Shown piece by piece: positions 27,423 to 63,043 of a DNA stretch of 64,000 bases. A program made the position numbers and the translations under genes. Source of the DNA: Alphaproteobacteria bacterium (GTDB lineage: Bacteria; Pseudomonadota; Alphaproteobacteria; GCA-2731375); assembly GCA_965225945.1 (NCBI GenBank), contig CBDDBZ010000026.1, positions 64,001 to 128,000 of the forward strand. Reading direction: 5' to 3'. Position 1 is the stretch's first letter; each line of letters opens with the position of its first letter. The notes beneath the pieces are model-generated. The model did no database searches and was not told the origin of the DNA. It saw nothing but the letters and a program-made list of their open reading frames with translations.

Positions 27423-27472
27423 GATTGAGCAACCTGATGTGTGCAAATTCGGAACGCCGTTGATCAGTCATC

Positions 27473-28227
27473 CTTGCCTATCCGGTTATCACCCACACCC
27501 ACTATATGTAGTGGGCACCCATTTTCCTGAGTAAAGCTCGGTGCAGGTCGAAGCGGAGATATCTCCGGCGATGCCGAGCAGGGACTCGGACGGCATTGTA
27601 GCGCCTTTTAGGCGACACTTTAGCGTGGTGGAAATCCTAATCATTGAGTCGGATTTGGCAAAACGCCACGTTGCATAAAGGACCGTCACTTCATTGAAAT
27701 TTATCTGAAATCGGAGGTGAACGACACCGATGGAATATTCCAGGAAATCAGAGCTTCATTGAATTGTAGGATTCGAGTGCCGGATTATTCACAAATAGCT
27801 CTGTGAACTGGTTTTCAAGTTCGCTCAATACGTCATATGAAGTAAACGGATTGAGGATCACGTTCTTGCGTGTCGCTTCGTCTTCGCTGCGACTCAAAAC
27901 GCGCAGGAGACTAACAGGCGCGGACGGGTTCTTCGCAACGATTCGTGCCAGCGCGTCGCTTTCTTCGACTAGTGCCGTCAATCGCTCAGACGATGTCGTT
28001 TCATCAGCAGCTTCCCGTCTGGCCGTGGGTTTCTTCGTTTTTCCCTTGGTCGCCACCGTTCCGTCCCCCGATGTTAAGTACGTGACGTGAATTAAACTCC
28101 GGTTCGGTTTTCAGAACAATCAAGAATTAGCCGGATCGCCTCCTCAATGCGCCTGCGCCGGCCCTTGCCTGCAGTCCAAGGAGACACACTACATATAGTG
28201 GGTGTGGGTGATAACCGGATAGGCAAG
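27473..28227. mobile_element. 755-bp non-autonomous TIR cassette, copy 1
   Basis: TIR CTTGCCTATCCGGTTATCACCCACACCCACTATATGTAGTG; 8-bp TSD CAGTCATC at 27465-27472 and 28228-28235; no transposase. Confidence 0.93.
27748..28056 (-). CDS. Passenger protein with LRV/HEAT-like repeats (102 aa)
   Basis: GGGGGA upstream of the GTG start. VAKNPSAPVSLLRVLS..EDEATRKNVILNP resembles leucine-rich-variant repeats. Identical in copy 2. Confidence 0.6.
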   Translation of the reverse strand: MATKGKTKKPTARREAADETTSSERLTALVEESDALARIVAKNPSAPVSLLRVLSRSEDEATRKNVILNPFTSYDVLSELENQFTELFVNNPALESYNSMKL

Positions 28228-29438
28228 CAGTCATCCTCTGCTTTCCAAGTGATGTAGGGTTTTTCGGTGGTTTCCCATTTCTCGTCGATTTCGACGAGGA
28301 TGGCGGTGACCAGACGTTCGAGCGAGGCCTCGTTGGGAAAGACCCTGACCTTTACGGTGCGGCGCTTGATCTCCTGCTGGATGGATCGCTCCATGGGGTT
28401 CGAGGTTCGCATGCGCTTTTGGTGGCGCTCGGGCAGGGCGAAGACGGCGAGGCCCTCGGGGATCGCCGTCTCCAGCCAATCGGCGAGCTTGGGGGCGCTA
28501 TCGCGGTAGGCCGCCACCAGATGGCCCAGCTCGGCCTCGGCGGCCTTGCCGTCGGCGGCGTTCCAGACCCGGCGCAGCTCCTTGCCGATGGCCTTTCGGA
28601 TGGCGAGGTTGGGGGCGTGATGGATGGCGTTTTGAGCCAGATGGTACTGACAGCGCTGCCAGACGGCGGCGCCGAGGACGGCCTTGCGCGCGGCGCCGAG
28701 GCCTGGATGATCATCGGAAACGATATAGGCGACACCGCGCATGCCACGGGCAACCAGGGTCTCCAGGAAGGCGCGCCAGTGCACTTCGGCCTCGGAGAGC
28801 GCACAGGAAACACCGAGCACCCGGCGGCGCTGGTCGGGGCCGATGCCGATCACCGAGAGCACGGCGGCGTCGCGCACCACGCCACCCTCTCGGACTTTCT
28901 CATAGCGCGCGTCGAGGAGCAGGTAGCGGATCTCGCCCAGCGGCCGGTTGCGCCAGGCATCCAGCTCCCCATCCAAGAGCTTGGCGGCGCGGCTGACCTG
29001 GCTCGACGACAGGCTCTCCAGGCCGAACTCGCGCATCACCGCCTCGGCGTCACGGGTGGAGACGCCTTTGATATACATCTCCGCCACGGCCAGCATGACA
29101 GCGCGGCAGGAGCGCCGTCCGCGCTCCAGGGCTTGGGGGTAAAAAGGCGCCTCATGACCGGCGGTCTTGGGAACCTCGAGCCTCACCGTACCGGCCGGGG
29201 TGTCGATCTTCTTGGGTCTGGTGCCGTTGGCGTATCCCCGCCGCTCGGGCGTGCGCTCATAGTGGCCGGCGCCCAAGAACCTCTCCCGCTCGATCCGCAT
29301 GGCGAGATTGAAAAGGCCGGCGAAGACCGTCGCCATGTTCTCGCTACCGCCTTCGATCAATTGTTCCACCAAAGCCTCGACAGCGCTATCCTGGTCTTTC
29401 CGCATACTGGTTCTCCATGTTTGTTTGGACGCTTTCAT
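28092..29438 (-). CDS. IS256 transposase with C-terminus extended into the cassette
   Basis: Matches 41557-42768 up to KAEDD (one substitution seen). The stop codon is lost at the cassette insertion, adding 45 aa. Confidence 0.88.
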   Translation of the reverse strand: MKASKQTWRTSMRKDQDSAVEALVEQLIEGGSENMATVFAGLFNLAMRIERERFLGAGHYERTPERRGYANGTRPKKIDTPAGTVRLEVPKTAGHEAPFYPQALERGRRSCRAVMLAVAEMYIKGVSTRDAEAVMREFGLESLSSSQVSRAAKLLDGELDAWRNRPLGEIRYLLLDARYEKVREGGVVRDAAVLSVIGIGPDQRRRVLGVSCALSEAEVHWRAFLETLVARGMRGVAYIVSDDHPGLGAARKAVLGAAVWQRCQYHLAQNAIHHAPNLAIRKAIGKELRRVWNAADGKAAEAELGHLVAAYRDSAPKLADWLETAIPEGLAVFALPERHQKRMRTSNPMERSIQQEIKRRTVKVRVFPNEASLERLVTAILVEIDEKWETTEKPYITWKAEDDCLPIRLSPTPTICSVSPWTAGKGRRRRIEEAIRLILDCSENRTGV

Positions 29439-61914: not shown

Positions 61915-63043
61915 TTAGTCCTTGGCGTAAGTATCAGCCGCTTGACTATCGAATTCGATCATCACGCAAGGTTCATCTCCAACGACTTGAGCCTGGTGGC
62001 CGGGCTTAACTTCGTATACGTCACCTGGACTCACTGTGACTTCGCTTCCATCTTCATGTTGAATCAACAATTGACCCGATTGCACCACTCCGAGATGGTG
62101 ATGCTGACAGCTGTCCGTGCCGGCGACGGGCGCGATACATTCAGACCATACCCACCCTGGCTGAGCGGTCATCCGTGCAACCTTGGTAGATCCAACCTTG
62201 CCTATCCGGTTATCACCCACACCCACTATATGTAGTGTGCACCCATTTTCCTGAGTAAAGCTCGGTGCAGGTCGAAGCGGAGATATCTCCGGCGATGCCG
62301 AGCAGGGACTCGGACGGCATTGTAGCGCCTTTTAGGCGACACTTTAGCGTGGTGGAAATCCTAATCATTGAGTCGGATTTGGCAAAACGCCACGTTGCAT
62401 AAAGGACCGTCACTTCATTGAAATTTATCTGAAATCGGAGGTGAACGACACCGATGGAATATTCCAGGAAATCAGAGCTTCATTGAATTGTAGGATTCGA
62501 GTGCCGGATTATTCACAAATAGCTCTGTGAACTGGTTTTCAAGTTCGCTCAATACGTCATATGAAGTAAACGGATTGAGGATCACGTTCTTGCGTGTCGC
62601 TTCGTCTTCGCTGCGACTCAAAACGCGCAGGAGACTAACAGGCGCGGACGGGTTCTTCGCAACGATTCGTGCCAGCGCGTCGCTTTCTTCGACTAGTGCC
62701 GTCAATCGCTCAGACGATGTCGTTTCATCAGCAGCTTCCCGTCTGGCCGTGGGTTTCTTCGTTTTTCCCTTGGTCGCCACCGTTCCGTCCCCCGATGTTA
62801 AGTACGTGACGTGAATTAAACTCCGGTTCGGTTTTCAGAACAATCAAGAATTAGCCGGATCGCCTCCTCAATGCGCCTGCGCCGGCCCTTGCCTGCAGTC
62901 CAAGGAGACACACTACATATAGTGGGTGTGGGTGATAACCGGATAGGCAAGGATCCAACCTCGACGATTTCCACAGTTGTTTTTTCCCGGCGCCGCACTT
63001 CATCCGGTGATGAAAAATCAATATTATTAACTCCTGCACTCAT
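61915..63043 (-). pseudogene. Cupin-domain gene split by the 755-bp cassette
   Basis: Removing the cassette and one TSD restores MSAGVNNIDFSSPDEVR...EIVEVGSTKVARMTAQPGWVWSECI...CQHHHLG...PGH. Confidence 0.9.
62197..62951. mobile_element. 755-bp non-autonomous TIR cassette, copy 2 (passenger ORF 62472-62780, minus strand)
   Basis: Perfect 43-bp TIR; 8-bp TSD GATCCAAC at 62189-62196 and 62952-62959; near-identical to 27473-28227. Confidence 0.95.

Follow-up and report, generated by a model that had tools for sequence, protein, structure and literature searches.

Whose interests does a gene serve when it travels in a transposon that has no transposase of its own? This question is raised by a 755-bp element that occurs twice in the 64,000-nucleotide stretch of DNA analyzed here (hereafter, the window), i.e., positions 64,001 to 128,000 of contig CBDDBZ010000026.1 in the assembly GCA_965225945.1 of an Alphaproteobacteria bacterium. 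The element (hereafter, the cassette) carries one small passenger gene, which encodes a 102-aa protein of the leucine-rich repeat variant (LRV) type, between long terminal inverted repeats. [quoted passage not shown] The evidence presented below favors, with a probability that we put at roughly 0.6, the reading that this is a mobile insertion cassette of IS1595 lineage that is moved in trans and carries a gene serving the element itself.

The cassette lacks a transposase and has spread recently

An earlier reading made from the letters of the window only (the sequence-only reading) had described a recently mobile, transposase-less cassette, present as two 755-bp copies with a single difference in the left terminal inverted repeat, with repeats perfect over 43 bp in the second copy, a separate 8-bp target-site duplication for each copy, and one 102-aa open reading frame (ORF). 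Our reexamination confirmed this anatomy (Table 1). More specifically, both copies are 755 bp long and differ at one base, element position 42 in the left repeat (G in copy 1, T in copy 2); their inverted repeats are complementary at 42/43 (copy 1) and 43/43 (copy 2) positions; copy 1 is flanked by direct repeats of CAGTCATC and copy 2 by direct repeats of GATCCAAC; and the ORF of copy 2 occupies 62472-62780 on the minus strand. Apart from an 83-bp 3' remnant, neither the ORF list nor a Pfam scan revealed a transposase gene within the 755 bp. The G+C content of the element is 51%, compared with 66.3% for the host assembly.

The description of a two-copy cassette held for the window, which contains only these two, and not for the genome. 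By BLASTN, the host assembly (6.27 Mb, 39 contigs) yielded 71 near-full copies (≥700 of 755 bases), most of them 99.5-100% identical, together with 46 shorter matches. Both ends were present in 63 of the 71 near-full copies, and 48 of these 63 had identical 8-bp flanks that differed by site. Across the 48 sites, G was found at position 1 in 33 and C at position 8 in 35, with A/T at positions 2, 3, 6, and 7, which describes a palindromic, AT-rich target (approximately GWWYRWWC) that has A or T two bases beyond either edge; the mean G+C content of the duplications was 47%, versus 66% for random genomic 8-mers. The ~70 copies are the product of a recent burst of a high-copy element, and the number of near-full copies, their near identity, and the different duplications at their sites bear out the recent mobility that had been claimed for the cassette.

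We also examined whether the same ends enclose other genes. Paired ends fell into two main size classes, corresponding to the cassette (740-790 bp) and to the insertion sequence (IS) described below (1100-1135 bp), and identical ends around other cargo were not found in this genome among the 6 inspected of the 12 end pairs outside these two classes: four were full cassettes with nested ISs, and two were old, decayed copies. The four nested cases (C18:7053-9405, C33:3570-5501, C39:129544-131332, and C32:76108-77983) retain intact cassette ends and perfect 8-bp duplications, and they portray a host genome under simultaneous bombardment by several mobile-element families.

A co-resident IS1595-family insertion sequence shares the ends of the cassette

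A 1105-bp IS is present in the host genome at 10 full-length copies, and its transposase frame is open over 350 codons. The transposase (339 aa from ATG) matches the Pfam families DDE_Tnp_IS1595 (3.7e-37) and Zn_ribbon_IS1595 (6.9e-14) as well as NCBIfam transpos_IS1595 (7.6e-57), and the IS duplicates 8 bp of target, as seen at C26:2024-3128, which is flanked on both sides by GTTCGATC. According to a description of the IS1595 family, its members generate 8-bp duplications and encode a single transposase with a zinc finger and a DDE domain (PMC8101967); in most groups, an N-terminal zinc ribbon accompanies the DDE_Tnp_IS1595 domain (PMC8101967). Such a transposase is encoded by the partner IS and is missing from the cassette, which has in common with this bona fide family member the 8-bp duplication and the termini.

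The resemblance at the termini is extensive. Fifteen terminal bases are identical at both IS ends and both cassette ends, the cassette repeat matches the IS right end at 30/32 bases, and bases 1-126 of the cassette share 77% identity with the left end of the IS, with similarity ending at ~base 125. In addition, C-terminal residues of the transposase (SLLGIAGD..ELYSG..) are still encoded just inside the left repeat of the cassette. Its first ten bases, CTTGCCTATC, would fit the end consensus of the ISSod11 group in ISfinder, a candidate placement. The derivation from the IS1595 family suggested by the sequence-only reading is supported by the co-resident 1105-bp IS, the 15 shared terminal bases, and the 77% left-end identity, and we regard the cassette as a non-autonomous derivative of an IS of this family.

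Because an intact IS is co-resident, the ends are shared, and the burst is recent, we infer that the cassette is mobilized in trans by the transposase of this partner IS. The first three bases of the ends co-vary between the cassette and the local IS (CTT here, CGT in genome G041); that is, the local IS and the local cassette of G041 both start with CGTGCC, versus CTTGCC in the present genome, and such co-variation is predicted by mobilization through the local transposase. In the mechanism that we propose, the DDE transposase of the partner IS would recognize the shared terminal bases and move the cassette in trans into the palindromic AT-rich target, 8 bp of which would be duplicated, and a recent burst of such events would have raised the cassette to ~70 copies. 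At one locus outside the window (C26:1261-3128), a cassette and a full IS are adjacent, with GTTCGATC between them and on both flanks, an arrangement that suggests two insertions into one preferred target.

Two trivial explanations that the sequence-only reading had named as grounds for abandoning the cassette have, taken jointly, next to no chance of being correct. The first is that the second copy is an assembly artefact; many copies have differing target duplications (48 have their own), and independent public runs as well as other assemblies contain the element. The second is that the cassette arose from a catalogued IS by simple internal deletion, with a remnant of the transposase as its ORF. 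Bases 1-126 do derive from the left end of an IS1595-family element, as a deletion would have it, but the similarity stops there and the interior is unlike the transposase. Moreover, the 102-aa ORF has no BLASTP similarity to the IS transposase, so it is not a transposase remnant, and it matches the Pfam family LRV_2.

The IS also occurs in rearranged forms that are bounded by two left ends, each form being present at several loci. In one form (1631/1658 bp), the full IS is joined to 513 bp of its left part in inverted orientation; in another (1121 bp), the leftmost 990 bp are joined to an inverted left end of 131 bp. Rearranged copies lie outside the window at C1:44070-45700, C14:57696-59326, C15:7573-9203, C27:160123-161699, C33:95821-97478, and C38:177697-179354, and further ones at C19:59701-60821 and C34:188810-189930. 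The C19 copy is flanked by an 8-bp duplication, so such forms seem to transpose as units.

The passenger gene defines a family of small cassettes

A 90%-identity clustered protein database contained 234 relatives of the passenger protein at E ≤ 0.001 among 251 candidates. Among the 120 relatives listed, 85 are exactly 102 aa long, identity extends down to 74%, and many are encoded on contigs of only ~0.5-1.5 kb. We fetched 14 loci from species genomes (including metagenome-assembled genomes labelled Alphaproteobacteria and Rhodospirillales) and 80 from metagenomes, and examined 75 of these 94. The other 19 were set aside: 11 metagenome loci in which a contig end truncates the match and, among the genome loci, 4 that match only partially and 4 that encode long LRV proteins (three of these cyanobacterial by record title).

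Both ends of the element could be located in 63 of the 75 loci, and in each of these 63 the gene sits inside a cassette of 516-755 bp, never as an ordinary chromosomal gene. Most of these elements measure 500-549 bp (55 loci), with 5 of 550-599 bp and 3 of 754-755 bp, and the ORF is intact (99-104 codons) in 65/75 loci. Identical 8-bp flanks were found in 17/63 related elements; where they are missing, metagenome contigs that join different copies are probably the cause. The usual member is ~545 bp long and consists of a repeat, an upstream region of ~128 bp, the ORF, ~23 bp, and the other repeat, and the GGGGGA motif before the start codon is conserved in the family consensus. The 755-bp form of the present genome is a derived variant with ~210 extra bases, which include the transposase remnant. 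Its gene differs from that of some short forms by a synonymous divergence (dS) of ~0.13, the family maximum being 0.6-0.8. The G+C content of the family stays at 46-55% (about 50%) although the flanks span 42-67%, and 33 residues of the protein are invariant in a 14-sequence alignment (A1).

Selection acts on spreading lineages, and single insertions decay

To characterize selection on the passenger gene, we compared 58 distinct intact coding sequences. In the 1610 pairs with dS > 0.1, the median nonsynonymous divergence (dN) was 0.168, dS was 0.558, and dN/dS was 0.285, with values below 0.5 in 96% of pairs. As a control, the five other frames gave dN/dS of 0.45-1.77, i.e., the annotated frame was the lowest of the six. 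The passenger gene is under purifying selection across the family. It is therefore very improbable that the ORF is a functionless captured fragment or a chance frame whose conservation stems only from recent spread. The near identity of the copies within the host genome and the resemblance to the first module of longer genes are what such an explanation would expect, but the 102-codon frame has been kept at dS ~0.6-0.8 with the low ratio just given, its ratio is the lowest of any frame, and the 33 residues of A1 have not changed.

Within the host genome, the 61 ungapped copies display 11 nonsynonymous versus 1 synonymous variant (over 229 and 74 sites, respectively), and several of these variants fall on residues that are invariant in A1. 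The ORF is intact in 61 copies and broken in 10 that span it completely; a further 16 matches include it only in part. In the three old copies with 80-85% identity the ORF is disrupted, and the sole full copy in a sister genome (G002) is decayed. Frame-breaking variants were shared between loci in 0/16 cases, versus 15/98 for other variants (p ~0.07, hand calculation). Single insertions decay neutrally, and selection is exerted on those lineages that continue to spread. This combination of lineage-level selection and neutral decay of insertions suggests that the gene serves the element. Genes on which transposable elements themselves depend show such a pattern, which speaks against cargo retained because it benefits the host.

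The sequence-only reading had proposed a gene shuttle. That the passenger is host-useful cargo, for instance a repeat protein in symbiosis or regulation, which the cassette merely shuttles, we consider decidedly unlikely. It would agree with the purifying selection on the gene, with the finding of the 755-bp form in sponge-associated RNA libraries, and with the existence of mobile insertion cassettes with adaptive cargo, which PMC3129680 treats as established. A useful gene, however, does not need 61 intact copies, nor would its insertions be expected to decay neutrally and to leave only a wreck in the sister genome. Likewise, 63/63 loci with both ends place the gene in a cassette and never make it an ordinary chromosomal gene, and a G+C content kept at ~50% in hosts with flanks of 42-67% fits frequent host-to-host movement and not long residence.

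The passenger is a small helical-repeat protein that was probably captured

The 102-aa protein matches Pfam LRV_2 (PF25591) over residues 12-64 with 34.1 bits, above the gathering cut-off of 27, and falls just below the cut-off for LRV (PF01816; 19.4 versus 21.6 bits). An AlphaFold2 model based on a 64-row alignment (predicted local distance difference test [pLDDT] 84.5, predicted template modeling score 0.68), which replaced a poor earlier model from a 14-row alignment (pLDDT 58.2), leaves the lysine/arginine-rich residues 1-16 unstructured and folds the rest into one long and five short helices. The Pfam match and the helical-repeat model agree with the earlier description of the passenger as LRV/HEAT-like.

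Comparisons with characterized proteins returned generic similarities. A sequence search of the PDB gave a best E of 0.63, Foldseek found nothing in the PDB at E ≤ 0.001, VIA-align retrieved only generic HEAT/ARM solenoids (best Z, 5.3), and neither PHROGs nor PADLOC provided a useful match for the passenger. In BFVD, the best matches were phage LRV proteins of 92-125 aa with no assigned function, and these were weak (E 0.03-0.5).

A profile search of 1.84 billion representatives yielded 5475 proteins at E ≤ 0.001. The majority are LRV arrays 600-2200 aa in length, in which up to 20 stretches match. All of the long relatives scanned (16/16) have both LRV and LRV_2 domains; WGR is present in two, NACHT in one, and CWB2 in one. 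The best match starts within the first 133 residues in 125 of the 139 long proteins listed (table read by eye), and four examples, three cyanobacterial and the fourth labelled "uncultured bacterium," align to the whole ORF from their first module. In its origin, the passenger gene was probably a first module captured from a gene for a long LRV-repeat protein. Among the options that the sequence-only reading had offered for the passenger, a captured fragment stands in this sense of a probable origin, and a plain unselected one is contradicted by the purifying selection described above. A family search of the host genome (E ≤ 0.001) found no other LRV protein. We know of no established function for long LRV arrays.

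A putative promoter and RNA libraries

The motif TTGTTC-17-TTTAAT, read by eye, marks a putative promoter upstream of the passenger gene; a consensus scanner did not report this site. The one site that the scanner did report, TTGCCA-16-TAGGAT (62358-62385, minus strand), lies downstream of the gene and is directed outward through the cassette's left end; with 1 site found versus 0.5 expected, it may be due to chance. Four metatranscriptome runs, belonging to three studies, contain assembled cassette interior, with word depths that vary by run and bin between ~20 and 300; the single-copy flanks were nearly uncovered in those contigs.

How the passenger might serve the cassette

We propose that the passenger protein, with its predicted disordered basic tail and short LRV/HEAT-like solenoid, most likely serves the element itself, as it is intact in spreading lineages while single insertions decay, and that the likeliest ancestor of its gene is the first module of a gene for a long LRV-repeat protein. 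The protein could be a protein-binding adaptor that aids mobilization or establishment of the cassette by acting on the transposase borrowed by the element, on the transposition complex, or on a host factor. This adaptor role is a tentative guess, to which we assign somewhat less than even odds.

The case for a gene that serves the element is limited in several respects. First, the absence of shared frame-breaking variants is not statistically significant, and the within-genome excess of nonsynonymous variants rests on 12 variants. Second, hosts that kept only useful copies would also give rise to purifying selection between lineages. Third, genome G029 (identical to G042; 5 Mb, from another family of the same class) holds at least 75 full-length copies of the same IS (166 matches), with a transposase that is 99-100% identical (loci L103, L107, and L111), but only two fragments of the cassette gene; the IS is thus abundant where the cassette gene is not intact, so the IS itself does not need the protein. 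Fourth, when the transposase (A2) and the passenger (A1) were modelled as a complex, the scores of 0.18 and 0.24 fell short of the mark of 0.32, which is evidence neither way. Finally, 70 DNA copies could yield the same picture in RNA libraries, which is therefore not proof of transcription.

The presence of the same IS in G029 also suggests that the IS has recently passed between distant hosts.

That the IS spreads in G029 without the gene would sit well with a counter-defense function, in which the passenger sequesters a host factor and so aids the persistence of mobile DNA (e.g., by binding a host sensor or silencing protein) and not its transposition. Small stand-alone LRV proteins do recur on phages, as seen in Atlas clusters of 82 and 99 aa whose commonest taxon is Uroviricota and in the weak BFVD matches noted above, and some long relatives fuse LRV arrays to NACHT or WGR. 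We nevertheless judge this alternative unlikely, given that PADLOC and PHROGs gave no match, that no long LRV protein was found in the host genome for the small one to mimic, and that none of the phage matches has an assigned function.

Returning to a gene that serves the cassette, a bolder version, which we hold to be possible yet doubtful, is that the family represents a protein-coding satellite transposon between MITE and IS, whose small adaptor would hijack or out-compete the helper transposase or disarm a host factor. If true, this would explain why a 102-codon gene has been kept intact in a 545-bp parasite of a parasite across hosts and habitats. An action on a borrowed transposase or on a host factor would constitute a simple, testable case of molecular parasitism between mobile elements, and would also provide the first functional handle on the large, uncharacterized LRV_2 family.

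Comparison with known kinds of elements

MIC231 of Bacillus cereus is an example of a mobile insertion cassette (MIC). The category is defined in PMC3129680, with De Palmenaer et al. (2004) as the cited source. We found in the present element IS-type repeats and a target duplication without a transposase, together with a gene that is unrelated to transposases (LRV_2). Judged by the features that define the category there, the cassette would be an MIC, one that is presumably mobilized in trans. More specifically, it shares with MICs the IS inverted repeats, the target duplication, the lack of a transposase, a passenger unrelated to transposition, and a likely dependence on a cognate IS in the genome. 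It differs from them in that the same single small gene is conserved family-wide under element-level selection, in contrast to the diverse adaptive cargo of MIC231-type cassettes, and in that its copy number (~70) and size (~545 bp in most relatives) are MITE-like. Indeed, the cassette resembles MITEs in being small, high-copy, and non-autonomous, with long terminal repeats, fixed-length duplications, and a recent burst; MITEs, however, are defined as non-coding, whereas 309 of ~545 bp are here a gene under purifying selection.

IS1595 family members with passenger genes ("transporter IS") were reportedly described by Siguier, Gagnevin, and Chandler (2009), a paper cited in PMC3129680. The cassette is like ISs of this family in its 8-bp duplication, its shared termini, and its transposase 3' remnant. 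Transporter ISs keep the transposase beside the passenger, within the same repeats, whereas the cassette has none and is best described as a derivative and not as an IS; consistently, none of the 63 measured relatives is longer than 755 bp. As for the long LRV proteins (LRV PF01816 and LRV_2 PF25591, some with WGR, NACHT, or CWB2), the whole ORF aligns to one of their modules, usually the first, but the cassette encodes just one module, a 102-aa protein that has a lysine-rich tail of its own.

An analogy may also be drawn with the two-gene PIF/Harbinger transposons of eukaryotes, in which a small Myb-like protein recruits the transposase. There, as perhaps here, an element encodes a small non-catalytic protein that it may require for its own mobilization; the two systems have no homology, and in the present case the small protein and the transposase are on separate elements.

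We found no description of this element in the literature, nor any paper joining "leucine rich repeat variant" with transposition, within a coverage that excludes most subscription journals, including the 2009 paper on IS1595; in the accessible part of PMC11602168, we found no mention of IS1595, of a passenger, or of coding capacity. What sets the family apart from described cassettes is that one small gene defines a widespread, MITE-sized, high-copy family held by element-level selection. Selection maintains this one gene both in genomes labelled Alphaproteobacteria and in numerous metagenome contigs without a label, while individual insertions rot. Standard annotation misses the ~70 copies per genome or labels them "hypothetical protein," even though copies interrupt genes, such as the cupin gene in the window.

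Features of the window and genes hit by the two insertions

Table 1. Positions of the two cassette copies, their parts, and the genes that they interrupt (window coordinates)
Feature	Position	Strand	Remarks
Copy 2 of the 755-bp non-autonomous cassette	62197..62951	- (strand of its gene)	100% identical to many other genomic copies
Copy 2, left terminal inverted repeat, 43 bp	62197..62239	.	43/43 complementary to 62909-62951; homologous to IS left (transposase-3') end
Copy 2, right terminal inverted repeat, 43 bp	62909..62951	.	30/32 outermost bases match IS right end
Target-site duplication GATCCAAC, left of copy 2	62189..62196	.	8-bp direct repeat
Target-site duplication GATCCAAC, right of copy 2	62952..62959	.	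8-bp direct repeat
Passenger gene, copy 2	62472..62780	-	102 aa, GTG start; LRV_2 helical-repeat protein with basic N-terminal tail, predicted disordered
Region upstream of passenger gene	62781..62908	-	Conserved GGGGGA Shine-Dalgarno-like motif; promoter-like TTGTTC-17-TTTAAT
Transposase-gene 3' remnant, IS1595 family, 83 bp	62240..62322	-	Motif SLLGIAGD..ELYSG..; from alignment and translation against IS left end
Spacer	62323..62471	.	With the remnant, ~210 bp absent from the usual 545-bp relatives (relatives run from gene side to other end)
Copy 1 of the cassette	27473..28227	-	One base apart from copy 2 (element position 42)
Passenger gene, copy 1	27748..28056	-	Identical to copy 2 gene
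Target-site duplication CAGTCATC, left of copy 1	27465..27472	.	8-bp direct repeat
Target-site duplication CAGTCATC, right of copy 1	28228..28235	.	8-bp direct repeat
Cupin gene cut by copy 2	C-terminal part 61915..62196, N-terminal part 62952-63043	-	Pfam Cupin_2 5.9e-7
IS256/Mutator-family transposase gene, stop codon destroyed by copy 1	28228..29438	-	Pfam Transposase_mut 1e-88

To identify the genes hit by the two insertions, we rebuilt the empty sites in silico by deleting the element and one 8-bp repeat, and ran Pfam on the unaltered ORFs of the window. Both sites were restored as the sequence-only reading had predicted, i.e., a cupin ORF for copy 2 and the stop codon of an IS256 transposase for copy 1. 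More specifically, the empty site of copy 2 has 127 codons open across the joint, with a cupin ORF of ~121 aa from ATG, and that of copy 1 restores a Mutator/IS256-type transposase frame whose terminal TGA overlaps the target site. With copy 1 in place, the transposase ORF (28092-29438, minus strand) extends ~45 codons into the cassette and reaches 448 aa.

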